A stretch of DNA of 64,000 nt from contig CAWKJD010000021.1 of NCBI GenBank assembly GCA_963849945.1, positions 3,978 to 67,977 of the forward strand. Direction: 5' to 3'. Made by a program: the position numbers and the translations under genes. Shown one piece after another: positions 8,176-39,211 of this stretch. Every line of letters begins with the position of its first letter. Within the stretch, counting starts at the first letter, position 1. The stretch comes from an uncultured Bacteroidales bacterium (GTDB lineage: Bacteria; Bacteroidota; Bacteroidia; Bacteroidales; VadinHA17). The notes beneath the pieces are model-generated. The model was not told the DNA's origin, ran no database searches, and saw nothing but the letters and a program-made list of their open reading frames with translations.

Positions 8176-8222
8176 CTGAACATTTCAGTTTGTTTATAAC
8201 TTTTTACAGAACCATTGAGCTT

Positions 8223-8573: not shown

Positions 8574-8623
8574 GGCTTCCTGATCAGGATATTCTGAGGC
8601 ACTGTTTTTTCTGATTACACTCC

Positions 8624-18304: not shown

Positions 18305-18679
18305 ATGCTTTCCCGGAATGATATTTTACCCAAATTGAAAGCCCGCGACAGGGCTACAATAGAGTTGATTTATAAATGTTTGTTTCCCAGCTTATATGGC
18401 TGGATCTCACAAAATTCCGGAACAAGAGAAGATACTGAAGATATTTTTCATGATTCTCTTCTGTGCCTGATAACCAAACTTGATTCACAAAGTGTACAAC
18501 TGACATGTGATTTTTCTACATACTTCATATCAATATGCCGTAATAAATGGTTTCAGATGCTTTATAAAAGGAAGAGGTTAGCGCATATCACCGTTGAAAA
18601 TTGTCAGACTCTTTTCTACGATATGAATGAAATGGCAGAAGAAGAGGAAATAGAGAATAAGAGATACTATGCTTCTTGA
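18305..18679 (+). CDS. ECF-type sigma-70 factor, region 2 part (split gene)
   Basis: RDRATIELIYKCLFPSLYGWISQNSGTREDTEDIFHDSLLCLITKL resembles sigma region 2. The ORF ends 11 nt after the start of the next one, in another frame. Confidence 0.6.
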   Translation: MLSRNDILPKLKARDRATIELIYKCLFPSLYGWISQNSGTREDTEDIFHDSLLCLITKLDSQSVQLTCDFSTYFISICRNKWFQMLYKRKRLAHITVENCQTLFYDMNEMAEEEEIENKRYYAS

Positions 18680-18905
18680 TGCACTGCATAAGCTTGACAG
18701 GAGATCTCTGGCAGTAATGGAAGCATCTCTGAATGGAAAGACAAACGATGAAATCGCCGCAAAAATGGGATTCCTAAACTCCCAGGCTGTTGCTGACAAA
18801 AAAAAGAATTGCAAGAAGAAACTGATACGGATACTTGCCGGTGATACAGAAAATAAAGAACTGACGAATGAAAAACTTCACCTACATAGAACATATTGTA
18901 AATGA
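18669..18905 (+). CDS. ECF-type sigma-70 factor, region 4 part (split gene)
   Basis: LLDALHKLDRRSLAVMEASLNGKTNDEIAAKMGFLNSQAVADKKKNCKKKL resembles the sigma region 4 HTH. Confidence 0.6.
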   Translation: MLLDALHKLDRRSLAVMEASLNGKTNDEIAAKMGFLNSQAVADKKKNCKKKLIRILAGDTENKELTNEKLHLHRTYCK

Positions 18906-19353
18906 TCCTGTCAATGATGAGGGAAAGAATTCTTTTATTACTCGACTGATTAATAATCCTGGGTTAAGAAAAGAATATCAGAAATATATCAAATTAGAAT
19001 ACTTAGTTAACGAGCAGGAAGAGAGGCTGGGAGGCATAATCAAAGAATTGGCAGACTTCACGTTTAATGTCAATCGCGCAATTGATGCCAGAGGGAATCC
19101 AGATGACCTGATTAACACTGTTCAGGATCAGGACACTTCACGATTAATTAGATCCGTTATTGCGTCAAACAGACCTCAGGATGCCCGTGAAAAGAAGAGA
19201 TGGTTCAGGGCAGCATCTGTACTGGGATTCCTTCTGTTTATTTTGAGCCCTGGTACTACCGCGACTGTAGTAGTCATTAACAAGATCAATTTGTTGAATG
19301 TCAGTTTTAATATGATTTTTCAATATTTGATTGAATCTAATTTCTTATTATGA
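18868..19353 (+). CDS. anti-sigma-like membrane protein (single TM)
   Basis: Follows and overlaps the sigma gene. One hydrophobic span, WFRAASVLGFLLFILSPG. Assignment is by context only. Confidence 0.4.
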   Translation: MKNFTYIEHIVNDPVNDEGKNSFITRLINNPGLRKEYQKYIKLEYLVNEQEERLGGIIKELADFTFNVNRAIDARGNPDDLINTVQDQDTSRLIRSVIASNRPQDAREKKRWFRAASVLGFLLFILSPGTTATVVVINKINLLNVSFNMIFQYLIESNFLL

Positions 19354-19763
19354 TGAAAAAGAAACCAAAGAATTTCCTGGCAGCATTTACCCTAACGGAA
19401 TTACTTGTTGTACTGATCATTATTGGAATACTTGTACTACTTGCACTGCCTAATCTCATGCCGCTGATTACAAAGGCCAAAAGCACTGAGGCACAACTCC
19501 AGCTAAACCATGTACACATGCTCGAAAAATCATATTACTACCTCTTTTCAAAATATTCCCCCAGCCTTGAAGAGATAGGTTTCGAGCAGGAAAAACTTAC
19601 AACTGAAGATGGGAAAGCGAATTATCTGATTGAAATCACTTCATCATCAGTAACAGGTTTTATCGTAAAAGCAACCGCGGTTGTTGATTTCGATGGTGAC
19701 GGTACATATAACGTGTGGGAAATTAATGAGAACAAAGACCTGAAAGAGGTAATAAAAGACTGA
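19350..19763 (+). CDS. major (pseudo)pilin with a prepilin-type N-terminal cleavage/methylation motif (GspG/PilA-like)
   Basis: KNFLAAFTLTELLVVLIIIGILVLLALPNL. 137 aa. Confidence 0.85.
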   Translation: MMKKKPKNFLAAFTLTELLVVLIIIGILVLLALPNLMPLITKAKSTEAQLQLNHVHMLEKSYYYLFSKYSPSLEEIGFEQEKLTTEDGKANYLIEITSSSVTGFIVKATAVVDFDGDGTYNVWEINENKDLKEVIKD

Positions 19764-19764
19764 A

Positions 19765-20286
19765 ATGGTGATTCGGGTAATAATATGTTTTGTTCTCCTG
19801 ATTGTTGTTATTCAGGATTTTAGATTCAGGGCAGTACACTGGATAATGTTCCCGGTACTATGGATATTACTTGTGGCTGATAGTCTTATCGGATTAAAAT
19901 TCATGCCTTACATTTCAGGCACAGCTATAAATCTTCTGATCATTTTAATTCAGAGTTTGATCTTATATACCTACTATATGCTTCAGGGCAAGAATCATAA
20001 ATTTATTATAACACGCATATTAGGCGTAGGTGACATGTTGTTCATCATCATTATGGCTTTTGCCTTTACCTGGACCAGTTTCATGTTCTATTATATTGCC
20101 GGGTTGCTTTTTGCACTGCTTGTGTGGATAATCATCAGAAAGATTGCCAAAGAGGAGACAGGGCTTGTTCCACTTGCAGGGTTGCTTGCATTATATATGA
20201 TAATAATAATGCTGGTCGACATTGCGCTGCCTGCATATGGCAGGAGCACGGATATCATTAACTGTTACAATGTTTATGGAAGCTGA
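19765..20286 (+). CDS. A24-family prepilin peptidase-like membrane protein (short, TadV/CpaA-sized)
   Basis: Polytopic membrane protein with the two Asp motifs VIQDFRFRAV and GVGDMLF. Confidence 0.65.
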   Translation: MVIRVIICFVLLIVVIQDFRFRAVHWIMFPVLWILLVADSLIGLKFMPYISGTAINLLIILIQSLILYTYYMLQGKNHKFIITRILGVGDMLFIIIMAFAFTWTSFMFYYIAGLLFALLVWIIIRKIAKEETGLVPLAGLLALYMIIIMLVDIALPAYGRSTDIINCYNVYGS

Positions 20287-21700
20287 CAAAATCGATATAA
20301 GTATCGATATCCTTCAGGTAATAAGCTCTGATCAGGCCTTTTATTACAATATTATTCCAAAGAAGGTAAACGGTACCGCAATTACATTTTATTGCAGCCT
20401 TAATACTGATAAGGCCACCCTCTCACAGGAACTAAAAGTACTGTTTGGGAAGACTATTCTTCTGGAATCTATTAATGAGGACCTGCTACAGCGTAATCTG
20501 GCAACGTATTATTGCAGGAACAAAGTATCCCCTGCGACAAAAACCAACACGCTTAACCATGAAGGATTTCTCGAAACGATTATTAATGAAGCCTACCAAG
20601 TAAATTCCTCTGATATTCATATTGAAGCTTCTGAAGAAAAAGGAAGGGTAAGGCTGCGTGTAGACGGCAAGCTTCTTGAAAGATTCAATATCAAAAAAGA
20701 AGATTATCCCGCTCTTGTTAATAAGGTTAAAATCCTGGCAAATCTTGATATTGCGGAGAAGCGCCTGCCCCAGGACGGCAGGATAAGCCTGAAGGATGCA
20801 CAAAATGTTCAGGATATAAGGGTTTCCGTAATCCCTTCCATCCATGGCGAAAAAGTTGTTTTAAGGCTACTTAAAAAAAGTACAATTGATATTACGCTGA
20901 AAGACCTCGGGATGTCAGCTGCACAACTTGATACATATTCCAGCGGCGTCAGAAAGAGCAATGGTATTGTCTTGATCAGTGGTCCAACCGGATCGGGCAA
21001 GACGACAACCCTGTATGCTACCCTGAACCTTCTCAACAGTAAAGAGGTCAATATCCTTACAATTGAAGATCCTGTTGAATACACAATTAACGGAGTGAAC
21101 CAGGTTAATCTGAGGGATGATATAGGACTTTCATTTTCGAGGGCTCTAAGAACCTTTCTGAGGCAGGACCCGGATATAATCATGTTGGGTGAGATACGTG
21201 ATGACGAGACAGCCCAGATGGCAATAAGAGCTGCTCTCACCGGCCATCTTGTTCTGTCAACTATACATACCAATTCTGCGTGGGGCATAATTACTAGGCT
21301 TCATGACATGGGCATACAGCCCTTCCTGCTTGCATCGACACTTAATATGGCTGTGGCTCAGAGACTTGTCAGGAAGCTGTGCATTCATTGCAGGCAGGAA
21401 GTCATTGATGAAAAGCAGTTAAAAATCCCGAAAACAAAGTTCTGCATGCCCAGGAAATATTATAAGCCAATCGGTTGCCCTGCATGCAACTTCACTGCAT
21501 ATTCCGGCCGGATAGCCGTATTTGAGATCATAGAGATATGTGAGGTGCTTCGGGAAGCAATTAAAACATCCAGGTCTGAGATAAATGAATATATGCATTC
21601 TAAACAGATACCAAAACTGTCAGCATCTGCTTATAACCTGTTTTGCAGGGGAGAGTCATCACTTGACGAAGTCTTCCCGATATTAACAATTGACTATTAA
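20270..21700 (+). CDS. GspE/PilB-family secretion ATPase
   Basis: Walker A SGPTGSGKTTTL, Asp box, Walker B DPDIIMLGEIRD, His box TGHLVLSTIHTN, and tetra-Cys CIHC...CPAC. The Met at 20270 avoids overlap with the peptidase gene. Confidence 0.95.
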   Translation: MFMEADKIDISIDILQVISSDQAFYYNIIPKKVNGTAITFYCSLNTDKATLSQELKVLFGKTILLESINEDLLQRNLATYYCRNKVSPATKTNTLNHEGFLETIINEAYQVNSSDIHIEASEEKGRVRLRVDGKLLERFNIKKEDYPALVNKVKILANLDIAEKRLPQDGRISLKDAQNVQDIRVSVIPSIHGEKVVLRLLKKSTIDITLKDLGMSAAQLDTYSSGVRKSNGIVLISGPTGSGKTTTLYATLNLLNSKEVNILTIEDPVEYTINGVNQVNLRDDIGLSFSRALRTFLRQDPDIIMLGEIRDDETAQMAIRAALTGHLVLSTIHTNSAWGIITRLHDMGIQPFLLASTLNMAVAQRLVRKLCIHCRQEVIDEKQLKIPKTKFCMPRKYYKPIGCPACNFTAYSGRIAVFEIIEICEVLREAIKTSRSEINEYMHSKQIPKLSASAYNLFCRGESSLDEVFPILTIDY

Positions 21701-21710
21701 TAGACAATCG

Positions 21711-23648
21711 ATGAAAAGGACAAATCAGGTTTTGAGAAGAACATTTATACTGACTTGGTTTTTGATGGTTTGTTTTTTTCCACAGAAAGCAAGAGCACAG
21801 GTTGTTGATGACCTGTTCGTGAGGTTGGATTCTGTTGAGAAGCAGATCAGGCGGCTTGAAGTCTCAGTGCCGGGTCTTAATGAAAAGGTAAATATCTCTC
21901 TGACAGATGTTCCTTTGAATGAGTTTCTCAGGGCGATCGCCAACAATTCAGGTCTGAATATGGATATAGATCCTTCTGTCAGTCAAAGGGTATCCAATAA
22001 CTTTTCTGATGTCCGTGTATCTGATGTTCTGATTTTTCTCAGCAGACAATTCAGGCTTGATATTTCAGAAATCAACAATATTTTAATAGTGAGGCCTATC
22101 AATGTGCCGGCACCCCTGCCATTGTGTTATGTGGAATACAACGATTCAACACAGAAGCTTACCCTGGAAGTAGAAGGTGAGCTGCTTTCCACTTTTCTAA
22201 AAGCAGTTACAATTAAAACGGGAAGAAACGTAATACCCTCTTATGATGCTGCTCAGGTACAGGTAAATGCCTTTATACTCTCCATGCCATTTCAGGATGC
22301 CATTGATAAGATGTCCTATGCGAACAACCTCCTTGCTAATCCCACTCCTGACGGTTTCATCCTCATTGAAAAGAAGCCTGTGGAAAAGGCTGAATTACAG
22401 GTCGTCCGTGAAATGCCCGGATCATCCCAGGTCTCAAGGGGTGGCAAGGCAACAGGTAATTCTGTGATAACGGTCAGGCAGCTGGGCCCGGACAGTGTCT
22501 ATGTGTTTGCTGAAAATGCGCAGCTGACAGATGTTATCAGGGATGTTGCCGGGAAATGCGGTATAAGTTACATCCTCTCATCTGAAAGTAAAAATCAGGT
22601 CAATCTTCTGATAGCAGGAGATAGCTTTGATAATGTTTTTGCCAATATACTTTCAGGATCAGATCTGGTATTAAAGAAATACAACGGGGTTTATATTATA
22701 GGTAATAAAGAAACAGCTGAACTTATGACCCAAAAGGTCATGCATCTTAAGTACCGGAGTGTAGACAGTATTGCCTTTGCTGTGCCTGAAGATCTTCTTG
22801 ACCAAGTTGATTTGCGTGTTTTCAAGGAACTAAATAGTGTCTTCTTAAGCGGACCTCATGACAAAGTTGAAACGGCGGCGGAATTCATTAACGCCATTGA
22901 CAGATCAGTTCCGGTTGTTTCTATAGAGCTGCTGATCATAGACTACAGCACATCATATACTATCAGCACGGGTATTGAGGCGGGGATAAGTGACCAGCCG
23001 GTCTCCACCGCCGGTGTTGTCTTTCCCAATTTAAATATCACCCTTGGCTCTCAATCAATCAATGACCTGATCAACAGGTTTAACGGCTTTGGATGGGCCA
23101 GGATAGGACAGGTGACTCCAAACTTCTATGCGTCCTTAAAAATGCTTGAAAACCAGGGCATCCTGAAGATAAGATCAACACCAATACTGTCAACACTTAA
23201 TGGACATACCGCTGAATTGAGTATTGGTAATACTGAATATTACCTTGAGGAGTCAGTGAATATTATTGGAACACAAAATCCTCAGACGGCAACAACACAG
23301 ACTTATAAGCCTATCACCGCTGAGCTCGCAGTGATAATAACTCCCCAGGTTTCCGGGGATGACCAGATAACGCTTGAGGTAGAAGTTACTCAGTCTGATT
23401 TCACTAAAAGGATTTCAACCACTGCACCTCCGGGAAAGTCTTCACGAACTTTCAAATCACTTATAAGGGTGAAGAATGGAGAAATGATTCTGTTAGGTGG
23501 GCTGGAGGAGAAACGGGATAATAAGACCAGTCATGGTACCCCGTTCCTGTCACGTATCCCGGTTATCAAGTGGTTATTCTCATCACGCGATGAGATGAAT
23601 TCAAAATCAAAGCTTAACATATTTATTAAGCCAACAATATTAAACTGA
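21711..23648 (+). CDS. secretin (GspD/PilQ family)
   Basis: Signal peptide from MKRTNQVLRRTFILTWFLMVCFFPQKARAQ. C-terminal secretin pattern LLGGLEEKRDNKTSHGTPFLSRIPVIKWLFSSRDEMNSKSKLNIFIKPTIL. Confidence 0.9.
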   Translation: MKRTNQVLRRTFILTWFLMVCFFPQKARAQVVDDLFVRLDSVEKQIRRLEVSVPGLNEKVNISLTDVPLNEFLRAIANNSGLNMDIDPSVSQRVSNNFSDVRVSDVLIFLSRQFRLDISEINNILIVRPINVPAPLPLCYVEYNDSTQKLTLEVEGELLSTFLKAVTIKTGRNVIPSYDAAQVQVNAFILSMPFQDAIDKMSYANNLLANPTPDGFILIEKKPVEKAELQVVREMPGSSQVSRGGKATGNSVITVRQLGPDSVYVFAENAQLTDVIRDVAGKCGISYILSSESKNQVNLLIAGDSFDNVFANILSGSDLVLKKYNGVYIIGNKETAELMTQKVMHLKYRSVDSIAFAVPEDLLDQVDLRVFKELNSVFLSGPHDKVETAAEFINAIDRSVPVVSIELLIIDYSTSYTISTGIEAGISDQPVSTAGVVFPNLNITLGSQSINDLINRFNGFGWARIGQVTPNFYASLKMLENQGILKIRSTPILSTLNGHTAELSIGNTEYYLEESVNIIGTQNPQTATTQTYKPITAELAVIITPQVSGDDQITLEVEVTQSDFTKRISTTAPPGKSSRTFKSLIRVKNGEMILLGGLEEKRDNKTSHGTPFLSRIPVIKWLFSSRDEMNSKSKLNIFIKPTILN

Positions 23649-23652
23649 GACA

Positions 23653-24867
23653 ATGAGCTTTTATGAAGACATAGCGTTTCGAAAAATGCGAAAGTGTGCA
23701 GGTCTATATTTTTGGTTCGGCGTTGAGAAGGATCTGTATGCAACACTGACTGTCACAACCCTGAAAAAAGGCAAGGTGACCATTAAGAGTGCCTGCACTG
23801 CGAATTCACTTGAGGAGATCATCCGGAAGATACCTCCCAATTTGCCTTTAATAATTTCTGTCGACGGTATAAACGTTATTCATCGTATTGTCAGTCAGAC
23901 CTCTTACGATAACCCTCTCCTTCAAACTTTCCCGGGCATAAAAGTCAAAGATTTTATTGTCAGGAAGAATGTTGCGGCTGAAGAAAAAATAATTATCTCA
24001 CTGGTAAGGAGAGAAGATATCAATGCGCTTGTTAAATCATTGAATGAAGCGGGGATTTTAATTTATGATATAAACGTGGGTCCTTTCAGTATTGAGAACC
24101 TTCCAGGTATAGCTGCCGGAACTGGTGAAGTCCATATCCCTTTTTATGACCTGCATTTTGAGCATGACAGGATGTGTGACTTTGAACGAACCCTCTATAA
24201 TAGTATTGAGAACAACTGTCTTCTGGAATTTGGCGATGAACAGATGTCTTCCGAATTCCTTGTTCCTCTTTCTCTGTGCTATGGCTTCTATCAGACCGGC
24301 GGTAAAGGTGAGACTGAAGAGCAGTTGGTTGAACAGCGAAAAGAGTTTGCCGCAAAAAAAATACTGGCTGTCTCCGTGCTGCCCTTCTTCCTTCTGGTTT
24401 TCACAGCCCTGCTCATCAATTTTCTGGTTATGATGAAGTACGGGAAAGAAAGCCGTCTGCTCGAACAATCGGTGGTCGCTGGCAAACAGTATCTGACACA
24501 GATTGATTCTCTCAGGAAAGCTGTTATGATAAGGCAGAAGGTGCTTGAAACCAAACATAACCGGCAGGCAAGATACATGGCATTCTATTCTGACAGGATC
24601 GCTTCGTGCGTACGGCCGGGAATATTACTGACTGAGATGACCATTCATCCCCAGGTGTCAACGTCTCAGAAAAGAGATCACTATATTTTCCGCGATGACG
24701 TAATTACTATCAATGGGATAACAGATAATTCGGTGTCACTTGAAGCTTTCGTCAAACGACTGTCGGCCTTAGGATGGATTGAAAGTGTAAAGATACTGAG
24801 CTTCACTGAAGCAAAAGACGGCGTACGATCATTCCAGGTTGAAATCAATATAGGAGAAGGACAATGA
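23653..24867 (+). CDS. GspL-like (PilM-PilN-like) bitopic assembly protein
   Basis: 404 aa with about 230 cytoplasmic aa, one TM (ILAVSVLPFFLLVFTALLINFLVMM) and a periplasmic tail. Assigned by architecture and position, not by a motif. Confidence 0.45.
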   Translation: MSFYEDIAFRKMRKCAGLYFWFGVEKDLYATLTVTTLKKGKVTIKSACTANSLEEIIRKIPPNLPLIISVDGINVIHRIVSQTSYDNPLLQTFPGIKVKDFIVRKNVAAEEKIIISLVRREDINALVKSLNEAGILIYDINVGPFSIENLPGIAAGTGEVHIPFYDLHFEHDRMCDFERTLYNSIENNCLLEFGDEQMSSEFLVPLSLCYGFYQTGGKGETEEQLVEQRKEFAAKKILAVSVLPFFLLVFTALLINFLVMMKYGKESRLLEQSVVAGKQYLTQIDSLRKAVMIRQKVLETKHNRQARYMAFYSDRIASCVRPGILLTEMTIHPQVSTSQKRDHYIFRDDVITINGITDNSVSLEAFVKRLSALGWIESVKILSFTEAKDGVRSFQVEINIGEGQ

Positions 24868-24893
24868 CAATGACAATGACGATGACGATGACA
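24864..24893 (+). repeat. (ATGACR)x5 hexanucleotide tandem repeat at the start codon
   Basis: atgaca atgaca atgacg atgacg atgaca, encoding MTMTMTMTMT. Confidence 0.9.
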
Positions 24894-25415
24894 GGAAATA
24901 CCACATACCGTAAAAAACTTGTGTTCTTTACCTGCGGGGCTCTTGTTGTAATATCTCTTGCATACGCTTTCGGCTTCAAAAAGACTCTTAAAACCGCGAA
25001 AACACTGGCATATACAAGAGAGCAGTCAGGAGTAATCATCAGGTCAGAATCTCTTAAAAAGGAGCTTGAAACTAACCTTATTGAAATCAATGACAAGCTG
25101 GGAAATGTGCAAGTTATTGACGACGATCAGGAATTCGTGCTCAGCACAGTGCATCATAGTAGCAATGGAAGTAAGATCAGGGTTATAGAAGTTACGGGAA
25201 CAACAGCCCAGTCTGATAACGGAATTGTAAAAAGCACCTATGGAGCTACAGCTGAAGGCAGTTTTACAGACCTGGTAACCCTTATCAGAGCTTTTGAAGA
25301 GTCTGGTCATGAGGGCGATATCGCTTCCGCAACCTTTACTCGCTATTTTGATAACAAATCAAAGAAGACAGCAACAAGACTGAAGTTTTATATACAGGAA
25401 TATAATGCCCGGTAA
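24864..25415 (+). CDS. GspM/PilO-like bitopic protein
   Basis: 183 aa with one N-terminal TM (LVFFTCGALVVISLAYAFGF). ATGA start/stop overlap with the upstream gene. Assigned by architecture. Confidence 0.4.
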   Translation: MTMTMTMTMTGNTTYRKKLVFFTCGALVVISLAYAFGFKKTLKTAKTLAYTREQSGVIIRSESLKKELETNLIEINDKLGNVQVIDDDQEFVLSTVHHSSNGSKIRVIEVTGTTAQSDNGIVKSTYGATAEGSFTDLVTLIRAFEESGHEGDIASATFTRYFDNKSKKTATRLKFYIQEYNAR

Positions 25416-25417
25416 GG

Positions 25418-25786
25418 ATGAATAAAACTGCATGGTACTCATCGATTATTATTGTCGCAGTGAGTTTTACTGCATGTGATGATATTTTTGAGAAGGATAT
25501 TTCTGCAGAAGTACCGGAGATCATTACGCCGGCTGACGGTCAGAGTCTCAGCGGCACAGATCTTCTATTCTGGTGGAACTATATGAACGGCGCTGACTAT
25601 TACCAGCTCCAGGTCGCCAAACCCGGCTTTGAACTAATTGAGAAGCTTGTAGCTGATACCGTCATTGAGATAAACAAGTTCATTTTCACTTTTGAGGCCG
25701 GCACTTATGAGTGGAGAATAAGAGCATGCAATAACGCTTATTGTACCGGTTTTATCTATCGCACCGTGATTGTTACCGGTAAGTAA
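25418..25786 (+). CDS. small lipoprotein (possible pilotin/PilP-like accessory)
   Basis: MNKTAWYSSIIIVAVSFTACDD lipobox. No family recognised. Confidence 0.5.
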   Translation: MNKTAWYSSIIIVAVSFTACDDIFEKDISAEVPEIITPADGQSLSGTDLLFWWNYMNGADYYQLQVAKPGFELIEKLVADTVIEINKFIFTFEAGTYEWRIRACNNAYCTGFIYRTVIVTGK

Positions 25787-25819
25787 GCTGTCCTGAAAAA
25801 CCAATAGGCCAGACCACTG

Positions 25820-26299
25820 ATGAATAAAAAGAGACTGAACATAATACTGGTACCTCTGGCTGTCATTCTCTGGATAGTGATCGTGATGAAGGTTATATCA
25901 TTTACAAAGCCCAAATCCTCAGATGATATTATTTATTTACCAGGCACTGCACATTTAGAGGATGCGGGCACAGTCGATACGCTTAGTCTCCTTCTTAATT
26001 ATCCTGACCCGTTCAACCATAGTGTGAGCAGCTCTTCATATGTGGATAACAATATTGCAAAACCAAAGAACATTCCGTCTGACTTCTTTGCCAGACCACC
26101 TGAAATGCCTTTGCCTGACATCGCATTCAAAGGGGTTATTGCAACGGATAATAATGAAAAGGCCGTAGGACTTATGATAGTTAATGGCAGGTCTGTACTT
26201 GTCTCTGAAAACGACACTGTGGCCGGATTAAGAGTTATGGATTGCTGGTCTGACTCTGTCAGACTGAAGTTTAATGGCAGGACGTTTACTGTCAGATGA
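25820..26299 (+). CDS. GspC/PilP-like protein (N-terminal TM plus C-terminal beta domain)
   Basis: TM LNIILVPLAVILWIVIVM. The C-terminus FKGVIATDNNEKAVGLMIVNGRSVLVSENDTVAGLRVMDCWSDSVRLKFNGRTFTV resembles the HR/PilP domain pattern. Confidence 0.5.
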   Translation: MNKKRLNIILVPLAVILWIVIVMKVISFTKPKSSDDIIYLPGTAHLEDAGTVDTLSLLLNYPDPFNHSVSSSSYVDNNIAKPKNIPSDFFARPPEMPLPDIAFKGVIATDNNEKAVGLMIVNGRSVLVSENDTVAGLRVMDCWSDSVRLKFNGRTFTVR

Positions 26300-26303
26300 T
26301 GAT

Positions 26304-27560
26304 ATGATCATGGTGAGAGGCGGAATATTATATTATACTTTGTTCCTTATGGTGATCTCGGTTACGGTTATCACCCTGATACTGATGAGACATTCGCTCT
26401 ACCAGCAGACATTCGTCAACAGAAGCAAGGGCGATGAGCTTGACTGCAACATCAGGTCGGCATTTCTTCTTTATAAACAATATCCTAGGGTCCTGTCAGA
26501 AGAAGATAGTCTCATGATTGACCTTTTTAAAGACAGCCTGGCAATGGTTAAGCTGTCAAAAGAGAACTGGGGCATTTTTGATATTGTCACTGCATCTGCC
26601 CGATGGAAAAACCTTTCGATATGCCGCACAGGCCTTTTTGGTGAGGTCATTGACGCAGAGGACCCTGCGTTATATGTTACAGATCATGGTATAAGCGTCT
26701 CCCTTAATGGTAACACATTGATAAAAGGGGAGTCGTATATACCTGCCGGGGCTTTCAGAACGGCCTCCATTGAAGGCCAGCCGTTCATTTACACGCAAAC
26801 CTCCATAGGGAATGTGAAACAATCCCGGTCACTTCTTCCTGACCTCGATCCTATGATTGACAGCACTGTTACACACCTTTTCAGTGGGATAAACCCGGAA
26901 ATAAATTTGCCTGAAATAAACAGGAAATCAGACAATCTTTTTGAGAACCCTTTTACTAACCGTCCTGTTACATATTATGCGCTGCAGGATGCAATTCTTT
27001 CAGGATTTTCATTCAAGGGCAGGATAATGATATTTGCGTCAGGCACTATTTTCATTGACCGGACTACCACTTTGGAAGATGTGCTACTCGTTGCCAGGAG
27101 GATAGTGGTTGACGACGGCTTCAGAGGTTCATTCCAGGGCTTTGCGATAGATTCCATAAGGGTAGGCGATAATGTGACGCTTAACTATCCAAGTGTGATA
27201 AGTATCATCTCCCGCAGGGAGGATGATGGTGTTTCATTATATCCCGCCATTACCCTGGGCAGAAACAGTAGTATTGCAGGGTGTATCATCCTGAGGGCCT
27301 GGAATGAGAATTGTAAAGTGGTGGTTCCTGAAACATCTCTTGTAACAGGCCAGGTCTATTGCAATGGCAGGGTTGAATTGCTGGGCGATGTGCACGGATC
27401 ACTATTTTGCGACGGTTTTTCTTTTACCCGTGAGAGCTCAACGTATATTAATCACCTTCTGAACAGCGATATAAATATGGAATTGCTGCCCGCTGGATTT
27501 GCAGGGTTCCATGCGGGCGACGATCAATCCATAAGAACCTTGATCAGATGGCTCGATTAA
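26304..27560 (+). CDS. GspK/PilX-like large minor pseudopilin candidate
   Basis: N-terminus MIMVRGGILYYTLFLMVISVTVITLIL is like the RG-x-hydrophobic start of GspK/PilX proteins. The rest is not recognised. Confidence 0.4.
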   Translation: MIMVRGGILYYTLFLMVISVTVITLILMRHSLYQQTFVNRSKGDELDCNIRSAFLLYKQYPRVLSEEDSLMIDLFKDSLAMVKLSKENWGIFDIVTASARWKNLSICRTGLFGEVIDAEDPALYVTDHGISVSLNGNTLIKGESYIPAGAFRTASIEGQPFIYTQTSIGNVKQSRSLLPDLDPMIDSTVTHLFSGINPEINLPEINRKSDNLFENPFTNRPVTYYALQDAILSGFSFKGRIMIFASGTIFIDRTTTLEDVLLVARRIVVDDGFRGSFQGFAIDSIRVGDNVTLNYPSVISIISRREDDGVSLYPAITLGRNSSIAGCIILRAWNENCKVVVPETSLVTGQVYCNGRVELLGDVHGSLFCDGFSFTRESSTYINHLLNSDINMELLPAGFAGFHAGDDQSIRTLIRWLD

Positions 27561-27904
27561 CGAAACATCTTAAAGGCAGCACACTCGTTGAGACACTCGT
27601 CTCCATGGCACTGATTGTAATAATATTAGGTGCCTCATTTACTGCGCTTACGGGTATAGCACACAGCACGTTGAACCAGACAAGGTTCTACGCCCGTTTT
27701 GTTGTTAAGAATCTTATGGCAGAAGATTTTCTAGCCCATAAGAAAGATACTTTAAAGACCGATTTCGGCGGGTTTTCTATTGAGCAGGAACTTATTCTGT
27801 ATGATGACACAGACAAGCTGCAGATACTGGTGGTGAATGCTGTTACACCTGACGGCAGAATAATTTATACCGGAAGGAGGATAATTATCAGGAATGATGA
27901 ATGA
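27548..27904 (+). CDS. minor pseudopilin with a prepilin-type N-terminus
   Basis: LKGSTLVETLVSMALIVIILG. Confidence 0.75.
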   Translation: MARLTKHLKGSTLVETLVSMALIVIILGASFTALTGIAHSTLNQTRFYARFVVKNLMAEDFLAHKKDTLKTDFGGFSIEQELILYDDTDKLQILVVNAVTPDGRIIYTGRRIIIRNDE

Positions 27905-27916
27905 TACCATGGAAGT

Positions 27917-28423
27917 GTGAAGAAAATGCGCATTCCTCTGATAAATCATAGCAGGAAGTTAAGGTCATTCACCCTTACTGAGATACTTGTCGCTACATTG
28001 CTCTCGGCCATACTGCTGGCATTTGTTGTAACGGTATTCTCATTCTTTATGAACAGGGTGCGTTCTGAAAATAATAACATGAATCAGATGGAGGCTATTT
28101 TCTTACTGGAATCCTCCCTTGATGAAGTGATGAGGAAGTGTGATTCGATACTGGTTGAGAATCATCAGCTTCTGTTTTTCACTTCCGGAGAAAAAGATTC
28201 ATATGCTGAATTTGGTGACAGCATGATAGTAGTCTGTCTCAGAGAGACCTGTGATACTTTCAGATTGTCTCACAAAGATATGCACTCAACATATTTGACT
28301 GAAACAGGATTGATATCCAGGATTGACTTTAACATTGATCTCGGAACATTCAGTGTTCCGGTTTCATTACTTAAGGAATATGAGGGTGCTGTATTGGTTA
28401 ATTCAAAAGTTTCAGCGCGATGA
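27917..28423 (+). CDS. minor pseudopilin with a prepilin-type N-terminus
   Basis: RKLRSFTLTEILVATLLSAILLAFVV. GTG at 27917 or ATG at 27926 as the start. Confidence 0.75.
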   Translation: MKKMRIPLINHSRKLRSFTLTEILVATLLSAILLAFVVTVFSFFMNRVRSENNNMNQMEAIFLLESSLDEVMRKCDSILVENHQLLFFTSGEKDSYAEFGDSMIVVCLRETCDTFRLSHKDMHSTYLTETGLISRIDFNIDLGTFSVPVSLLKEYEGAVLVNSKVSAR

Positions 28424-29568
28424 AGATAGATACGACATTGTCACGGGTAATTAAAAAAGATGCCATTCAGGTGGAGAAAGAAGAGAAGAAAAGAAGTATA
28501 TGGTCAAAAGAGATAACATTTACACCTTCAGCAGGCAAAAATACTTTTAAAGCTCACTTTTTTGCCGAATTGGCACTGTTGATAAGTTCAGGCATGGATG
28601 TCCGGAGATCACTTGATATAATTGAGGGTGGCACGGCAAAGGAGAAGGAGCGCAACCTGCTGGCACGGATAAAAGAATCGGTTGTCAATGGTTCATCGTT
28701 ATCAGAAGCCATGGGTGAGACTGGCAGGTTTGAGCTGTATGATACCATGACGCTGACAATAGGAGAAGAGACTGGCGCATTATCTGAGGTGCTGAACAGC
28801 CTGTCAGTTTATTATTCAAAGAAAATTTCCCAGCGACGGCAGATTGTAGGCGCTCTGACATATCCGACTCTTGTGCTTGCAACAACATTAGTTAGTCTTG
28901 TTTTCATGCTGAACTACATAGTACCCATGTTTGAGGATGTCTTTCAGCGGTTCCGGGGAGAGCTGCCACCGCTCACAAAGGCCATTATTGCTGTCTCTGA
29001 TTCATTCATGAATGTATTCTGGGTACTATTGATAATCATGTTGATAGTCATATATATTTCCCTGACAAATCGCAAAAGGGATTGGTTCAGGTCTTTAAAG
29101 GCAAGCCTTTCGGGCAGGACGCCAGTTTTCGGAGAGATAGTAATGCTCACCTATAAGGTCAGGTATTGTCAGACGCTGGCGCTGCTGGTTTCTTCCAGGA
29201 TACATCTGCTTAAAGCCCTAGGGATGATAAAGAATATTATTGGTTATTATCCCCTTGAAAAAGACATGGATGAGATAATTGAGAAGATATCCGCCGGCCT
29301 ATCCTTGTCAGAGGCTATGGAGTCAAGCGCCTTTTTTGACAGGAAGATGATAGCAATGACAAAGGTAGGTGAGGAGGTTAATCGACTTGACACGATTTAT
29401 GGGCAATTATACAGGCAATACAGTGATGAGCTGGATGTTAAGATCAAGACCATGAACAACCTGCTTGAGCCTCTGCTAATTATTTTTGTTGGCCTGATGG
29501 TTGGTGTTATCCTTATTGCAATGTACCTGCCGATATTTCAGCTGGGGGTAAATATTAGCGGAAGCTAG
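28420..29568 (+). CDS. GspF/PilC-family inner-membrane platform protein
   Basis: Duplicated T2SS-F type repeats. The C-terminus LLEPLLIIFVGLMVGVILIAMYLPIFQL is typical. Confidence 0.9.
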   Translation: MKIDTTLSRVIKKDAIQVEKEEKKRSIWSKEITFTPSAGKNTFKAHFFAELALLISSGMDVRRSLDIIEGGTAKEKERNLLARIKESVVNGSSLSEAMGETGRFELYDTMTLTIGEETGALSEVLNSLSVYYSKKISQRRQIVGALTYPTLVLATTLVSLVFMLNYIVPMFEDVFQRFRGELPPLTKAIIAVSDSFMNVFWVLLIIMLIVIYISLTNRKRDWFRSLKASLSGRTPVFGEIVMLTYKVRYCQTLALLVSSRIHLLKALGMIKNIIGYYPLEKDMDEIIEKISAGLSLSEAMESSAFFDRKMIAMTKVGEEVNRLDTIYGQLYRQYSDELDVKIKTMNNLLEPLLIIFVGLMVGVILIAMYLPIFQLGVNISGS

Positions 29569-29737: not shown

Positions 29738-30312
29738 ATCCAATACCATTATACACTCAGGGCTTCATATCCTGATCAGATATGGCATGCCGATATAACC
29801 ATTGTAAAAACCCGTGATGGCATGAAATACTTTGTTTATCTGCTTAGGATAATTTTCCAAGGTTCATTCTCAGTTGGAGGATTGAAGAGGTGGTTTCTGG
29901 CAGAATAAGAGTAGAGACAATCAGGGAAGCCTATAATAAATATCACAACAAACATACTGCCACAACACTTTTAACAGACGGCGGTCCTGAAAATGACAAT
30001 AATGAGATGGAACGGTTCATTTTAAATGAAGCTACCGGATTTAATTCTGCTGTTGAATTAAAAGATATTCCGTTTTCAAACTCCATGATTGAAGCTCAAA
30101 ACAAACCTTTCAAATATCGGTATCTGTTCCGTCAGGAATATTCCACAGGCAGCGACCTAAAACGAATCTTTGCGGAAGATCTGTTTGACTACAATATTCG
30201 AAGGCCACATGTCTCACTACGTGGTTATACACCGGGAGAAGCTTATTCCGGATTGTCGGAAATGGAAATGATATGGTCTAACCAGATCAGACAGGCCAAA
30301 AGGGATAGGTAG
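29738..30312 (+). pseudogene. 5'-truncated, frameshifted DDE (rve-type) transposase remnant
   Basis: PDQIWHADITIVKT (first D), then a frame change at about 29845 before DNFPRFILSWRI (second D). Then TDGGPEN (E) and YNIRRPHVSLRGYTPGEAY. No N-terminal HTH part. Confidence 0.75.
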
Positions 30313-30336
30313 GCAGCGAACAGAATTGAGGCATGC

Positions 30337-30502
30337 AACCTGTGTCGGTAGATATGAAGAGAAACAGGAAAGAACAGCAACAACAATTGCTATAGTACTT
30401 CATGGCTGGAGATATCCCAACATAACATATTAATATTTAAGACCTTATTGTCACTTGTTGCAATATTGCAGCAAATTTTCTAAATTTACCTTAGAAATAG
30501 CT
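30337..30502 (+). repeat. ~166-bp direct repeat, copy 1 (partner at 39212-39378)
   Basis: 34 identical nt (tgtcggtagatatgaagagaaacaggaaagaaca), then roughly 85% identity by eye. Contains the near-palindrome TTGTTGCAATATTGCAGCAA. Confidence 0.8.
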
Positions 30503-30587: not shown

Positions 30588-31001
30588 ATGGATTCACAAA
30601 ACATTCATGAAATAGGATTCATCAAGTCTTTTGTTGTTAAAGAAAAGCAAGAACGCTTTTTATCATTGATACAAAACAAAAAAAAAAGAAAAAAACTCCG
30701 TCTATTATTAGCTCATAATATTGTCCTAAATGAAAAGGATAATATTCTTAAAAAGGAAGATTACTCCGAAGAAAGAATCTACATGCTGTTGAAAAAATAT
30801 GGGGCCCCAAGTATTTGCCATATAATATGTGAAAGTTCAAAGTATGATTATACTGAAACTGATTTGAAAGAAGCTTTACATGAACTATATACTTTAGATT
30901 TTGGATATATTATTTCATGCATTCCAGGAAAATTAGCCTATTATCAAGGAGAGCACCCTTCTTGTCGAGTAATATTACTTAATCAAATATCAAATGTGTG
31001 A
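30588..31001 (+). CDS. hypothetical protein (137 aa) with internal A10 and A7 tracts
   Basis: ATG ORF convergent with, and overlapping by 19 nt, the immunity gene of locus 2. NKKKRKK is encoded by aac-A10-g-A7. Confidence 0.45.
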   Translation: MDSQNIHEIGFIKSFVVKEKQERFLSLIQNKKKRKKLRLLLAHNIVLNEKDNILKKEDYSEERIYMLLKKYGAPSICHIICESSKYDYTETDLKEALHELYTLDFGYIISCIPGKLAYYQGEHPSCRVILLNQISNV

Positions 31002-31294
31002 AAATCCCCAAAACGTAACTCACCTGATTCGCTTACATCTATTGCTATGTTCATTATACCCGCATTTATTTCGTAACTTTTACATCTTTCAGAAAAAGGT
31101 TCAACATCTTCTATATGAATAAAATCGAGATTTAAATCTTTTACGGCTTTTTTCACTTTATCTATAAAATCCTCAGCACTAACAGCAATCGCTAATATAT
31201 TTACATATGCCCCCTTTGAACCACCCAGTAGATCATTGTCTGGTCTACTGGATACTTGTGCTAATCCAATCCAAATATTATGGTTAATATTCAT
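30983..31294 (-). CDS. candidate Rhs immunity protein of locus 2 (104 aa, no signal peptide)
   Basis: The Met at 31294 (MNINHNIWIGLAQV) overlaps the rhs stop codon (31284-31286) by 11 nt. The longer ORF to 31441 would lie inside the rhs coding sequence. Confidence 0.6.
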   Translation of the reverse strand: MNINHNIWIGLAQVSSRPDNDLLGGSKGAYVNILAIAVSAEDFIDKVKKAVKDLNLDFIHIEDVEPFSERCKSYEINAGIMNIAIDVSESGELRFGDFHTFDI

Positions 31295-34200: not shown

Positions 34201-34682
34201 TTTAAATGCATAGCATGATCATTACCCGATTCTTCCGGTTGCCATAACACTCCCGGTGCTCCCTGTTTAAGTACCCGGTTAAGTGGTGAGGCTTCAAAGA
34301 TTGTCTCAGACCATGGATTGGCATCCCGGGCAACCGTTGAGTCCACAGCTGTGTAAAATGCCAGCTGTTCATTCTTGGCCGATGTGTGCAATACCCTCGA
34401 TGTGGCGTCAGATACATAGGGCAGATATTTTCGACTTTCTCTTCCAAAGGCATCGTACTCAATATGCTGGACTATGTCACTCATCTCCGGGCTGGCTGAC
34501 ACATCTATTACCTGCACCGGTCGGCCGAGACCATCATAATAAGTGAGCGTCGGATTGTAACTTTCTCCATTATAGACTTTCTCAATGATGTAGTTGTAAC
34601 TGGTCTGAGAATACAGGTATTCTACTCTGCATATCAAGACCATTAAGATCACGGTGGCTTGTATAAATTGTTTTACTTTCAT
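31284..34682 (-). CDS. RHS repeat toxin, paralog of 9644..13051 with a different C-terminal tip
   Basis: Same signal peptide and DUF6443-like start. Core end [20 protein letters not shown]. The tip has a Gly/Ala-rich hydrophobic stretch and a basic His/Lys-rich end, GGDHYHPTNKDGEKKPNSTHHEY. Confidence 0.9.
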   Translation of the reverse strand: MKVKQFIQATVILMVLICRVEYLYSQTSYNYIIEKVYNGESYNPTLTYYDGLGRPVQVIDVSASPEMSDIVQHIEYDAFGRESRKYLPYVSDATSRVLHTSAKNEQLAFYTAVDSTVARDANPWSETIFEASPLNRVLKQGAPGVLWQPEESGNDHAMHLNYGTIVADEVIMFSVNANDQLVSTDYYDAGTLYKNELRDENGVWNSEYKDLQGQVVLKVSDSDTLKAKTYYVYDDFGLLRYVIPPKAAVFMTSVDTLDTSDSLIDSLCYYYEYDTRKRMSVKKLPGVAPVYMVYDKRDRLVMTQDGNLRDSTKWLFTKYDRLNRPVMTGLHHNNVVITRDSMQSLVNASMTVYYEDMTGDFTDENFGYTNQSFPVLGAGDEILTVTYYDNYDFDAGNIITSFTGSFNIDGDYPDSLVNYYIKGKVTGFLAKVLGEEKYLLTATYYDDKYRVLRVFNENIFGGKEVTLNKYDFIGNVLKSRLVIYKDTATTSPVIINRWNDLDHVYRPKDIYHEIVGKDTVHMAKMSYNEIGQLKTKQLHETSNGYYLQNIDYTYNIRGWLTDINDPETTSDNLFALSLQYNDTTGVGSLGALPMYNGNISGMKWKQNAEDLKGYSFRYDALNRLTTSVYGQGPELDQLSGKYNESVGSYDLNGNILSLNRSGEESDTVYTDLDNLGYYYEGNMLIAVEDQGQKGHGFIDGHEYSSGQEYEYDSNGNMIKDLNKGIVKIKYNYLNLPSEVIHDATHKVMYTYDATGVKLKKRLISDGNITDRYYTGTYEYDNNMLPVLIHFDEGVVNVTGSTYDYEYFLKDHLGNIRASFKPSGDTLISTQKVDYYPFGMIAYANGASNNKYLYNEKELQDDDFGGASLQWYDYGARFYDPQIGRWHVVDPDAESYFAYGPYVYVGNNPIRRIDPAGDTAWDVVLGFFAAVVDNATGGLTNARTNAASHVTDADDFNRGQNLGDSFSVLLGASMVEGGKDQIALGTATATASVAVELESGGTSTVTLAGGGGLVLSGMANVAEGTVLAVQGTKNLAAQKGRLPENKPGTTSSKPASQTSAGRATDKYGNKLGPSGEPQVNTVEHSTQKGAKDAARNYGKGAPVKHTNPKKGGDHYHPTNKDGEKKPNSTHHEY

Positions 34683-34701
34683 GATGGTCATCATTACAGG
34701 T

Positions 34702-38601: not shown

Positions 38602-39211
38602 AACAAAACCTTATAATTAATAGTTAGTTCCCTTTCATCTATTTATTAATCCCAAAAACCTCTTCTTATAGATGCTGCATAGGGGAAATGGCTCTATAAT
38701 AAATTCATGGTATAACTAACATTTAAAAGTTCTCACTCTGTCAACCATATCTTTTAAAATGACTATAAGTCGTTATGCTTAGTAGATGCGAGGTTTCAAA
38801 GATTTTTGGAGACATAGATGTCCGTTGACTATGAAGCATGCAAAACAAGTCAGCAGGTACAATAAGCAGACTGGCTATGTTGAATGCTTTTAAATTCCTC
38901 ATTTAATAGGTCATATTTGGGTTTTTACATACTTACAATGGTCCTCATACATTGCTGATCATCAAGGTTTAATCTATGTTGAAATATGATAAAGTATATT
39001 GAAAATAAAATTACTTCGACCATCAGAACCACGAAAATTTTCAAGGCAGGTTATAGCAAGCTTTCAATAGACATTATCTTTACATCAAGCTCATTGCAGT
39101 ATTGTGTAAAATCCGATAATATTAAGCACCCTGGTCAGGTATCAGCTGCTCAGTCTGACCGGATTTTCAAAATTCGTCATCAATTCCGTCAACATCTTAA
39201 GCACAAAATCA

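Follow-up and report, generated by a model that had tools for sequence, protein, structure and literature searches.

We analysed a stretch of 64,000 nucleotides, called the window below, from an uncultured Bacteroidales bacterium of the VadinHA17 lineage (contig CAWKJD010000021.1, assembly GCA_963849945.1). At 18305-29568 on the plus strand (all positions are coordinates of the 64-kb window) lies a gene cluster for a type IV filament machine resembling a type II secretion system (T2SS). It is headed by genes for a sigma factor and a candidate anti-sigma factor, and genes for Rhs proteins border it on both sides. The original prediction, made from the sequence alone, had suggested that this machine exports or displays the Rhs proteins. 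The genes of the cluster are listed here, with lengths in residues and the evidence in brackets.

18305..18905, plus strand: gene of an extracytoplasmic function (ECF) sigma factor, frameshifted (region-2 open reading frame (ORF) at 18305-18679, 124 residues; region-4 ORF at 18669-18905, 78 residues)
18868..19353, plus strand: anti-sigma candidate, 161 residues (position after sigma; C-terminal hydrophobic stretch, read as transmembrane; conserved over loci)
19350..19763, plus strand: major (pseudo)pilin, 137 residues (N_methyl motif; N-terminal matches to PilA/ComGC/GspG)
19765..20286, plus strand: short A24-type prepilin peptidase, 173 residues, polytopic (orthologue matches, invariant Asp)
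20276..21700, plus strand: GspE/PilB-class assembly ATPase, 474 residues (T2SSE, 2.7e-125)
21711..23648, plus strand: secretin, 645 residues (Secretin, 1.1e-36)
23653..24867, plus strand: GspL-type bitopic platform protein, 404 residues (PilN domain, topology)
24864..25415, plus strand: 183-residue protein in the GspM/PilO position, with an N-terminal hydrophobic stretch read as transmembrane (position, topology)
25418..25786, plus strand: small lipoprotein, 122 residues (lipobox ...FTAC)
25820..26299, plus strand: GspC/PilP-like protein, 159 residues, with an N-terminal hydrophobic stretch read as transmembrane (domain like the homology region (HR) of GspC)
26274..27560, plus strand: large minor pilin in the GspK position, 428 residues (AlphaFold 2 model; probable start at 26310)
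27548..27904, plus strand: minor prepilin, 118 residues, G/STLVE (N_methyl, 21.5 bits; cut-off 21.2)
27917..28423, plus strand: minor prepilin, 165-168 residues, S/FTLTE (N_methyl, 19.7 bits)
28420..29568, plus strand: platform protein GspF/PilC (T2SSF, 6.4e-45, two repeats)

Composition and relatives of the filament machine

Every sizeable ORF of the cluster lies on the plus strand, and neighbouring genes overlap or leave gaps of at most 35 nt between stop and start, as in an operon. All twelve co-oriented genes that had been predicted to follow the sigma/anti-sigma pair are present, and most of the names given to them have held. For comparison, contigs of relatives (loci numbered with L) were taken from homologues of the 404-residue and 428-residue proteins and from one genome scan and one metagenome scan, and all window proteins were placed on them by tblastn. 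A word-indexed search of 5.8 billion proteins returned 16 clusters of homologues for the 404-residue protein and 30 for the 428-residue protein, and the scan of genome contigs with the 404-residue family led to two Bacteroidales metagenome-assembled genomes (MAGs) only. The relatives of the cluster are Bacteroidales MAGs and a Flavobacterium sp. (W4I14), and the same machine genes were mapped in every locus.

The major pilin, predicted as GspG/PilA-like, fits that description by its N_methyl motif and its N-terminal matches. Its prepilin motif reads A/FTLTE, it has a DFDGDG loop and it is free of cysteine; against the NCBIfam model of GspG it reaches 34 bits (cut-off 88.9; the other equivalog cut-offs used were 630 bits for GspE and 424 for GspF). 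Its identity stays at 59-84% over all lineages, also where that of the secretin drops to 32-41%. Since the major pilin is thus the most conserved protein of the cluster, a periplasmic endopilus fits better than an exposed pilus. The A24-like peptidase call was borne out by the orthologues, 12 of 13 of which match Peptidase_A24 (PF01478); the window copy itself gave no profile match. Two aspartates of catalytic type, D18 (QD18F) and D90 (GxGD90), are invariant, and the length of 173 residues is insufficient for a methyltransferase domain.

The ATPase, the secretin and the platform protein are recognised by strong matches to T2SSE, Secretin and T2SSF, as predicted. The original prediction had proposed profiles as a means of separating GspE from PilB and GspD from PilQ. 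For the ATPase, which has two CxxC pairs, they lean to GspE (TIGR02533, 469 bits, cut-off 630) over PilB (437 bits), with both scores below their cut-offs and a gap of 32 bits, and among PDB structures EpsE (346 bits) stands before PilB (333 bits). For the secretin they tie, with PilQ at 117 and GspD at 116.5 bits, both far under their cut-offs, and with 69.8 bits for either in the PDB; its N0/STN and Secretin_N matches are weak and below threshold, and no AMIN domain was detected in it. GspF is the best NCBIfam model for the platform protein (230 bits, cut-off 424, against 180 for PilC, both below cut-off), and its best PDB match is PilC of Myxococcus xanthus (3.5e-39). One T2SSE-family gene is present in the 64 kb, as had been noted, and neither a second ATPase of this family nor PilT was found there or in the fetched flanks of the other clusters.

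The bitopic 404-residue protein has the layout of GspL, as predicted: a cytoplasmic part of ~235 residues, a hydrophobic stretch at ~237-260, read as transmembrane, and then a periplasmic PilN domain. The window protein scores 25.8 bits against PilN (Pfam threshold 22.8), and 15 of 15 family members match. The next protein, of 183 residues, had been called GspM/PilO-like, a call that comes from position and topology; a Pfam scan of its family and an hhalign comparison with the PilN region gave no support for GspM/PilO. The small lipoprotein, named as such for its lipobox, has an orthologue in nearly all loci and is a candidate pilotin or PilP-like protein. The 159-residue protein, called GspC/PilP-like, matches the HR region of TIGR01713 GspC (profile positions 79-142), but weakly (E 3e-4) and below cut-off.

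The protein in the GspK position (428 residues here, 420 in the original prediction, which called it GspK/PilX-like) gave no match in profile searches, and PDB sequence searches with it and with the 404-residue protein returned nothing significant. It lacks Glu5. Its AlphaFold 2 model, built on an alignment with 25 homologues, has a predicted local distance difference test (pLDDT) value of 88.6 and a predicted template modelling score of 0.85, and shows a pilin-type helix at 2-57 (56 residues), a small beta-sheet and then a beta-solenoid or beta-helix. The top Foldseek match is the Thermus minor pilin ComZ (6qvi, E 2e-4), at a template modelling (TM) score of only ~0.2. The earlier call seems right in spirit, and the model suggests a large tip-type minor pilin with a ComZ-like beta-solenoid head. 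The two further prepilin-type proteins were recovered by N_methyl matches, and the one at 27917..28423 also has weak ComGF/ComGE matches.

By sequence, the machine appears to lie between a T2SS and a type IVa pilus. The type IVa pilus of M. xanthus provides the best PDB match for the window pilin (PilA) and GspF (PilC) and a joint best one for the secretin (PilQ), and the ATPase is almost as near to PilB as to GspE; the helix-plus-beta-solenoid design of the 428-residue minor pilin is shared with Thermus ComZ. Unlike a type IVa pilus, the window has no PilT/PilU, separate PilM or AMIN domain, and no PilO was matched in the cluster; the PilM/N function is fused in the GspL-type protein, in which the PilN domain sits behind the 235-residue cytoplasmic domain. 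The pseudopilin set also departs from that of a canonical T2SS, with one major and three minor pilins where GspH, I, J and K make four. ComGA (263 bits) and ComGB (133 bits) stay well under the GspE and GspF scores. In its architecture the machine leans to the T2SS, with a single ATPase, a GspL-type fusion, a short, cysteine-free pilin and no AMIN domain. These results support a complete T2SS-like type IV filament machine of Bacteroidota type, with one ATPase for assembly and none for retraction, and they agree with the earlier classification as T2SS-like, with its single ATPase, its DNA of lower GC content and the Sec-dependent Rhs loci adjoining it.

We place the window cluster in the loosely defined group of Bacteroidetes T2SS-like clusters and not with the canonical Gsp T2SS. 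Known members are chu_3191-3201 of C. hutchinsonii, Fjoh_0611-0622, Phep_1100-1112 and Odosp_1507-1529 (PMC5553014). Compared by gene order, these clusters of the same phylum agree with the window: pilin, A24 peptidase, ATPase and secretin come in that succession, highly divergent L/M/C-like genes stand after the secretin, one end carries the minor pilins and gspF, and PilT is lacking. BLAST does not recognise their non-core components, as in the window. Unlike the window, they have no sigma/anti-sigma pair and no Rhs neighbours described (PMC5553014). The phenotype known there is cellulose utilisation, in which mutants of the C. hutchinsonii cluster are defective, and this was ascribed to a secretion defect (PMC5553014).

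Rhs modules, the sigma factor and a shared motif

On each flank of the cluster lies a minus-strand module in which a partner gene is followed by a DUF6443-Rhs gene and a small ORF.

9116..9640, minus strand: candidate immunity gene of module A, 174 residues (position, directly downstream of the toxin gene)
9644..13126, minus strand: DUF6443-Rhs toxin A (PF20041, 2.5e-38; TIGR03696, 1.7e-16; signal peptide read from sequence)
13071..16547, minus strand: partner A, 1158 residues (signal peptide, ~940 unmatched residues, one YD repeat, C-terminal BACON)
30983..31294, minus strand: candidate immunity gene of module B, ~103 residues (position; called as 103 residues in L002)
31284..34757, minus strand: DUF6443-Rhs toxin B (PF20041, 6.6e-39; Rhs_assc_core, 2.4e-12)
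34702..38601, minus strand: partner B, 1299 residues (signal peptide, YD repeat, BACON)

Both modules appear to fit the standard layout of polymorphic toxins, with the small genes as candidates for immunity; neither of the two candidate immunity proteins has a Pfam or NCBIfam match. The DUF6443-Rhs protein of ~1160 residues has its Rhs core at 859-941, ahead of a variable C-terminal toxin of ~215 residues. The two DUF6443 proteins score 60.5 and 47.2 bits against TIGR03696 Rhs_assc_core (cut-off 32.5), and their C-termini diverge after the core. Partner A matches BACON (5e-9) and RHS_repeat (2.8e-5), and its homologues adjoin type IV filament clusters in L012, L025, L027, L028, L029, L033, L034 and L037. 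PDB sequence searches with the partner and the DUF6443-Rhs protein gave nothing significant. As had been predicted, the four large proteins of the Rhs loci have Sec-type signal peptides and match neither PAAR nor VgrG; a T9SS (type IX secretion system) C-terminal domain (TIGR04183, TIGR04131; E <= 0.01) was not found in them either, and the window holds no type VI secretion system (T6SS) genes.

BACON is not always fused to the partner. In L029 (~1-1230, minus strand) and L025 (~1-1900, minus strand) it sits in a separate downstream gene, whose product has a signal peptide, BACON and many immunoglobulin-like (Ig-like) repeats; that downstream position is taken by a DUF5977 protein in L033 and by a Flg_new-repeat protein in L034. 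Among the best 150 DUF6443 representatives (proteins numbered with P), no fusion of partner and DUF6443 was seen. About 20 of these 150 exceed 1,600 residues and have the domain internally (for instance at 921-1157 of 2,085; P0054, P0058 and P0060 are among the examples), and their N-terminal extensions are not partner-like. The DUF6443 N-terminal region forms 7,004 clusters at 50% identity, and we found no paper on DUF6443.

Rhs proteins are known from Tc toxin BC cocoons and from the Sec-dependent WapA. Other established routes are the PAAR-Rhs proteins of the T6SS (PMC8765631) and the Rhs proteins associated with the type VII secretion system T7SSb (PMC10327511). The DUF6443 proteins share with known Rhs toxins the DPxG-type cleavage region, the variable C-terminal toxin and the small downstream gene. 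They differ from the known routes by a cleavable Sec signal peptide without PAAR, VgrG, LXG or TcA context, by the N-terminal DUF6443, by the novel partner of ~1,150-1,300 residues and by the linked secretin/ATPase/pilin machine. Zhang et al. 2012 tag Rhs toxins with signal peptides as 'T2SS' (PMC3482391). We do not count this as a precedent, since the label also stands on Firmicutes and Actinobacteria and thus denotes export by signal peptide, not a secretin machine.

A two-block word search upstream of the sigma, partner and pilin genes returned the motif TTCTATAAA-N11-GGATTAAT, which was scanned as exact matches to TCTAT-N15-GGATWAA. The 64 kb contain exactly three copies against 0.07 expected, and none of 100 shuffles gave three.

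18081..18107, plus strand: TCTAT-N15-GGATAAA, 198 nt before the sigma ATG
16613..16639, minus strand: TCTAT-N15-GGATAAA, 66 nt before the start codon of partner A
38646..38672, minus strand: TCTAT-N15-GGATTAA, 45 nt before the start codon of partner B

The fetched loci, 541,820 nt in all, hold 21 exact copies, each of them correctly oriented and 37-197 nt ahead of a sigma or partner gene. The motif precedes sigma in L001, L003, L005, L011, L012, L016/25, L021, L022 and L028; with one mismatch it occurs in L004 and L009 (before sigma) and in L012 (before the partner), and in L029 a weak variant precedes the pilin gene. It was not found in L030, L033, L034 and L037, none of which showed a sigma gene near its cluster. 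In the simplest reading of these positions, the ECF sigma factor would recognise the motif as its own, autoregulated promoter and would also drive the Rhs modules from it. A scan for sigma-70 promoters and terminators of E. coli type did not rise above shuffles, and its model is not applicable to Bacteroidota.

The sigma gene of the window is divided by a 1-nt frameshift at ~18669-18679, as seen when the frames are compared with those of orthologues. Its two ORFs match Sigma70_r2 (1.8e-5) and, weakly, r4/GerE, and the region-4 ORF starts with its own ATG. In all relatives where it is present the gene is a single intact ORF of 192-216 residues; an intact orthologue of 195 residues passes TIGR02937 (48.8 bits, cut-off 42.9). 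The identical split recurs in a second assembly (L002), and the 78-residue ORF appears in the gene calls of two Logan assemblies. A programmed +1 frameshift was considered and rejected, as the TCT-TGA site is unlike the slippery CUU-UGA site of prfB and a plain indel is more likely. The window unit may be silent or dependent on a sigma factor in two pieces. The motif before the sigma gene fits autoregulation, but with the sigma gene frameshifted the proposed sigma/anti-sigma control may not hold here.

The anti-sigma candidate gave no family match in profile searches. It measures 147-161 residues in the window clade against 285-296 in L012 (2145-3032), L025 (6214-7104) and L029 (4985-5842, minus strand), and those of L012 and L016/L025 contain TPR repeats. 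From these lengths, the window-clade protein seems to have lost a putative sensor domain.

Linkage across lineages and the genomic surroundings

In 14 of the 16 lineages with readable flanks, a partner gene, a DUF6443-Rhs gene or both stand beside the filament cluster: the window (on both sides), L001, L003, L004, L005, L024, L012, L016/25, L027, L028, L029, L033, L034 and L037. They do so in seven arrangements. The DUF6443-Rhs gene is convergent downstream of gspF, past an insertion sequence (IS) or IS remnant where one is seen, in L001, L003, L004, L005 and L024 (arrangement A). In arrangement B the partner (and DUF6443) gene is divergent from the sigma gene (L012, L016/25, L028 and module A of the window). 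In L029 a single leftward operon holds sigma, anti-sigma and partner, and the pilin operon diverges from it (C); in L027 the partner comes right after gspF, with the same orientation (D). Flavobacterium sp. W4I14 (L033, reached via the partner homologue P0052) has pilin-platform genes, partner, DUF5977 and DUF6443-Rhs on one strand (E). In L034, reached via the partner homologue P0047, the cluster is divergent from partner and DUF6443 and no sigma gene is present (F). In L037, a contig of 4.77 Mb, the order is minor pilins, gspF, pilin, peptidase, ATPase, then partner and DUF6443-Rhs (G); the starting point here was P0076, a DUF6443 representative picked on architecture alone.

Searches that began on the Rhs side thus led to filament clusters at three of four loci (L033, L034 and L037), and the fourth ends at a contig end. 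L035/L036, found via the DUF6443 representative P0061, were left out as uninformative, their contigs stopping at the Rhs module. The two exceptions among the 16 are L014, of which the downstream side alone is visible, and L030. The original prediction had named the wide occurrence of clusters without Rhs loci, and of Rhs loci without clusters, as what would refute its proposal, and the outcome of the co-occurrence comparison is largely favourable to it: linkage prevails in the counts given above, and L030 is unlinked.

Synteny alone is little proof, since the window clade keeps thiN just as faithfully. No IS lies between cluster and Rhs genes in L027, L028, L033 and L037. Selection for the linkage is likely, because adjacency outlasts seven rearrangements and persists at 32-38% secretin identity, which would be hard to explain otherwise.

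Three damaged genes lie near the cluster.

16755..17375, plus strand: thiN (thiamin pyrophosphokinase) pseudogene (one in-frame stop, no start codon)
29741..30354, plus strand: 3' remnant of an rve-family IS transposase (rve_3, 3.8e-8; residues 214-418 of the 418-residue L005 transposase)
38955..39110, minus strand: 3' relic of a second, divergent gspF copy (tblastn to GspF residues 331-382: 50% identity, E 1e-8, one in-frame stop)

The gspF relic shares the orientation of Rhs module B and stands directly ahead of it, mirroring the order of gspF and partner in L027, which suggests that module B came along with the end of another filament cluster. The thiN relic was rightly read as non-intact, but it is a near full-length pseudogene and not a short remnant: tblastn with the intact thiN of L001 spans residues 4-203 at 72.5% identity. 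The cluster adjoins thiN in at least eight diverged lineages (the window, L001, L003, L004, L005, L009, L011 and L022) and is therefore old in this clade; the cluster, which the original prediction had called probably acquired, is no recent acquisition. In relatives thiN is preceded by pnuC and a gene for a TonB-dependent receptor; the window has a recombinase/primase element and Rhs module A in their place.

The remark on AT-rich DNA, and with it a foreign composition, was confirmed, the GC content being 0.417 in the cluster against 0.468 in the right-hand 25 kb, and ~0.43 in relatives against 0.49-0.535 in adjoining core genes. The predicted IS remnant was also recovered, as the second half of the transposase listed above. 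The same rve-family IS lies at the corresponding site, just after gspF, in L003 (16137-16556), L004 (16635-17054) and L005 (15931-17187, intact), with 82-87% protein identity; the cluster proteins of the IS-bearing lineages are only 47-76% identical. The IS is either a shared old insertion or marks an insertion hot spot. In L024 (8660-9868, minus strand, and 9803-11773) a Mutator-family transposase and a type I restriction-modification system replace everything upstream of the secretin, leaving the cluster truncated, and the downstream DUF6443-Rhs gene is kept.

Within positions 1-9000 of the window, genes for a tyrosine recombinase (3374-4375, minus strand) and a Toprim/DnaG primase-like protein (5343-7868, minus strand), at GC 0.41, border on Rhs module A and have the look of an integrative mobile element. 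At 55195-56430 (plus strand) a 411-residue protein is encoded beside a PcrA-type helicase gene. It had been taken for T9SS cargo, but its match to the type B C-terminal domain stays below threshold at 29.5 bits (cut-off 35). A helicase/CHU_C neighbourhood recurs beside another Rhs module in L035/L036.

Proposed export of the Rhs proteins and its alternatives

What the comparison shows is the gene content and its conservation, the linkage of filament cluster and Rhs modules through rearrangements, and the motif that they share. We give an even chance to the view that the machine, the sigma/anti-sigma pair and the modules of partner, DUF6443-Rhs and immunity genes form one functional unit, which probably exports or displays the Rhs toxins. 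The Sec signal peptides and the lack of PAAR and VgrG exclude cytoplasmic loading of T6SS type, and passage of the outer membrane then needs an explanation. Because the secretin is the only outer-membrane conduit tied to the Rhs proteins both genetically and by regulation, we propose export by the filament machine. More tentatively, and at a little under even expectation, it is tempting to propose a dedicated toxin-export path of Bacteroidota, in which an ECF-sigma-controlled T2SS-like machine would secrete partner and DUF6443-Rhs proteins or display them at its tip, with DUF6443, the N-terminus of the partner or both as the trafficking signal.

We infer the role of the Rhs proteins as cargo and every step after export. 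A signal would free sigma from the membrane anti-sigma factor, and sigma would then fire the TTCTATAAA-N11-GGATTAAT promoters of its own operon, which encodes the machine, and of each Rhs module. Partner and Rhs toxin would cross the inner membrane via Sec and fold in the periplasm. A short filament with a minor-pilin cap could push both through the secretin, in the manner of a T2SS piston, or could bear both at its tip, like PilY1. BACON and Ig-like domains would anchor the complex on a glycan surface, and the C-terminal toxin would hit a neighbouring cell while the product of the small downstream gene shields the producer.

Models for parts of such a path exist. PilY1 is a large Sec-dependent protein that is carried out by the tip of the type IVa pilus. 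In Klebsiella pulA is divergent from pulC-O, and in E. coli sslE goes with T2SS-beta; both are dedicated T2SS loci with adjoining co-regulated cargo. As is proposed here, machine and adjoining cargo gene of Klebsiella oxytoca Pul and E. coli T2SS-beta, transcribed divergently or in one direction, stand under one regulator, and what is secreted there, a large Sec-dependent protein, reaches the cell surface, as the putative Rhs cargo would. The regulator of Pul is MalT and its cargo an enzyme, whereas the window has an ECF sigma factor and, as putative cargo, an Rhs toxin pair with an immunity gene. Moreover, Pul is a T2SS, and the machine proteins of the window reach no Gsp equivalog threshold.

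Several points weigh against this proposal. It is based on sequence comparison. None of the cluster proteins meets an NCBIfam Gsp equivalog cut-off, the best PDB match of the major pilin profile is M. xanthus PilA (7e-14; GspG 5e-4), and the 428-residue minor pilin resembles ComZ, a DNA-receptor pilin. L030, a more remote cluster of this general kind with 41% secretin identity, has the layout F-G-O-E-D, as in F. johnsoniae, among glycosyltransferase and housekeeping neighbours, without Rhs or sigma genes. In the window genome itself the sigma gene is frameshifted. The AlphaFold model of partner A, from an alignment of 8 sequences, has a pLDDT of 38.5, so that its fold is not predicted. Many DUF6443 toxins may use another route, because the 7,004 DUF6443 clusters compare with 16-30 clusters of the filament proteins, the latter from a word-limited search. 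The cocoon of RhsA has a size of ~86 x 65 Å (PMC8765631). Judged by GspD structures, such a body equals or exceeds the width that T2SS cargo usually has, and it comes near the limit for passage through a secretin.

Were the machine a competence-type pseudopilus for DNA uptake, the Rhs proteins could be co-regulated fratricide weapons that leave the cell by some other route. Killing and competence are indeed co-regulated in Vibrio cholerae, a single ATPase without PilT is what Com pseudopili have, the major and minor pilins have weak matches to ComP_DUS, ComGC, ComGE and ComGF, and the best fold match of the 428-residue protein, ComZ, is a DNA-receptor pilin from the competence pilus of Thermus. 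That match, however, reflects mostly 'pilin helix plus beta-solenoid' at its low TM score, ComGA scores far under GspE and PilB, and no comEA, comEC, dprA or comF was found in the window cluster or in or beside any examined locus. With the outer-membrane passage of Sec-dependent Rhs proteins also left unexplained, we regard killing coupled to DNA uptake as quite improbable. The only characterised natural competence found for Flavobacteriaceae, that of Riemerella, is said to have no pilus homologues (PMC8459023), and we set it aside as a model for a competence pilus of Bacteroidota. A surface pilus that binds prey or kin and so aids the delivery of Rhs proteins, which would reach the surface independently, appears unlikely as well, if less so. 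It would suit the pilin profile and GspF, both nearest to their type IVa counterparts in M. xanthus, and the equal secretin scores for PilQ and GspD. Contact killing of neighbours by a filament system is on record for Kil (Tad-like) of Myxococcus (PMC10433427). Kil is a filament-family machine with a secretin that is used for killing, but it belongs to a different filament family (Tad) from the window cluster. We know of no Rhs cargo for Kil. Against a contact pilus stand the lack of a retraction ATPase, of an AMIN-domain PilQ and of a separate PilM in the cluster, and a most conserved pilin without a disulfide-bonded variable region, which is unusual for an exposed pilus; nor does it offer another outer-membrane route for the Rhs proteins.

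The machine might instead secrete other cargo, for example hydrolases as proposed for C. hutchinsonii, with Rhs genes merely accruing in an IS-rich island of low GC. IS or their remnants do lie at the cluster edge in the window, L001, L003, L004, L005, L009, L011, L014 and L024, an integrase/primase element adjoins Rhs module A, cluster and modules have low GC in common, and L030 shows that such a cluster can occur without Rhs. Such hitch-hiking does not account for an adjacency kept over seven rearrangements and at 32-38% secretin identity, also in four lineages with no IS between the genes, nor for a motif private to the sigma operon and the Rhs modules and absent elsewhere from 64 kb and a further 542 kb. 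In L029 the sigma and anti-sigma genes lie inside the Rhs operon, and searches from the Rhs side reach filament clusters. Already disfavoured on these grounds, it has in our view only a slight probability. A different matter is whether the window genome holds a decaying remnant, in which machine and Rhs genes are no longer expressed behind a frameshifted sigma gene. The repetition of the sigma split in the second assembly and of the 78-residue ORF in two Logan gene calls agrees with decay, as do the thiN pseudogene, the gspF relic and the IS remnant nearby. Yet the machine genes (all 12), the partner and Rhs toxin genes of both modules and the three motifs are intact, and the frameshift may have arisen recently. 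Sigma factors of two subunits exist, such as SigO-RsoA of B. subtilis, and the region-4 ORF does begin with an ATG of its own. Decay is, we think, rather unlikely though worth serious thought, and it concerns activity in one strain, not the nature of the system.

The components of the proposed export unit are of known kinds, and their combination and regulation appear new; our literature search found no description of a coupling between Rhs proteins of Bacteroidota and a T2SS, a secretin or type IV filaments. In bacterial competition Rhs toxins serve as major weapons, and the Bacteroidetes T2SS-like clusters have had almost no assigned function so far. How signal-peptide Rhs proteins cross the outer membrane in Bacteroidota and what these clusters do would here merge into one testable hypothesis. 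A candidate promoter and sigma factor are offered for switching the system on, and Flavobacterium sp. W4I14, which has an isolate-style strain name, may permit genetics. If true, this would be a fourth bacterial Rhs route beside T6SS, T7SS and Tc, the orphan Bacteroidetes 'T2SS' would gain a role in interbacterial antagonism, and the cargo range of type IV filament machines would widen. It would also bear on competition among the Bacteroidota of sludge, soil and sediment.

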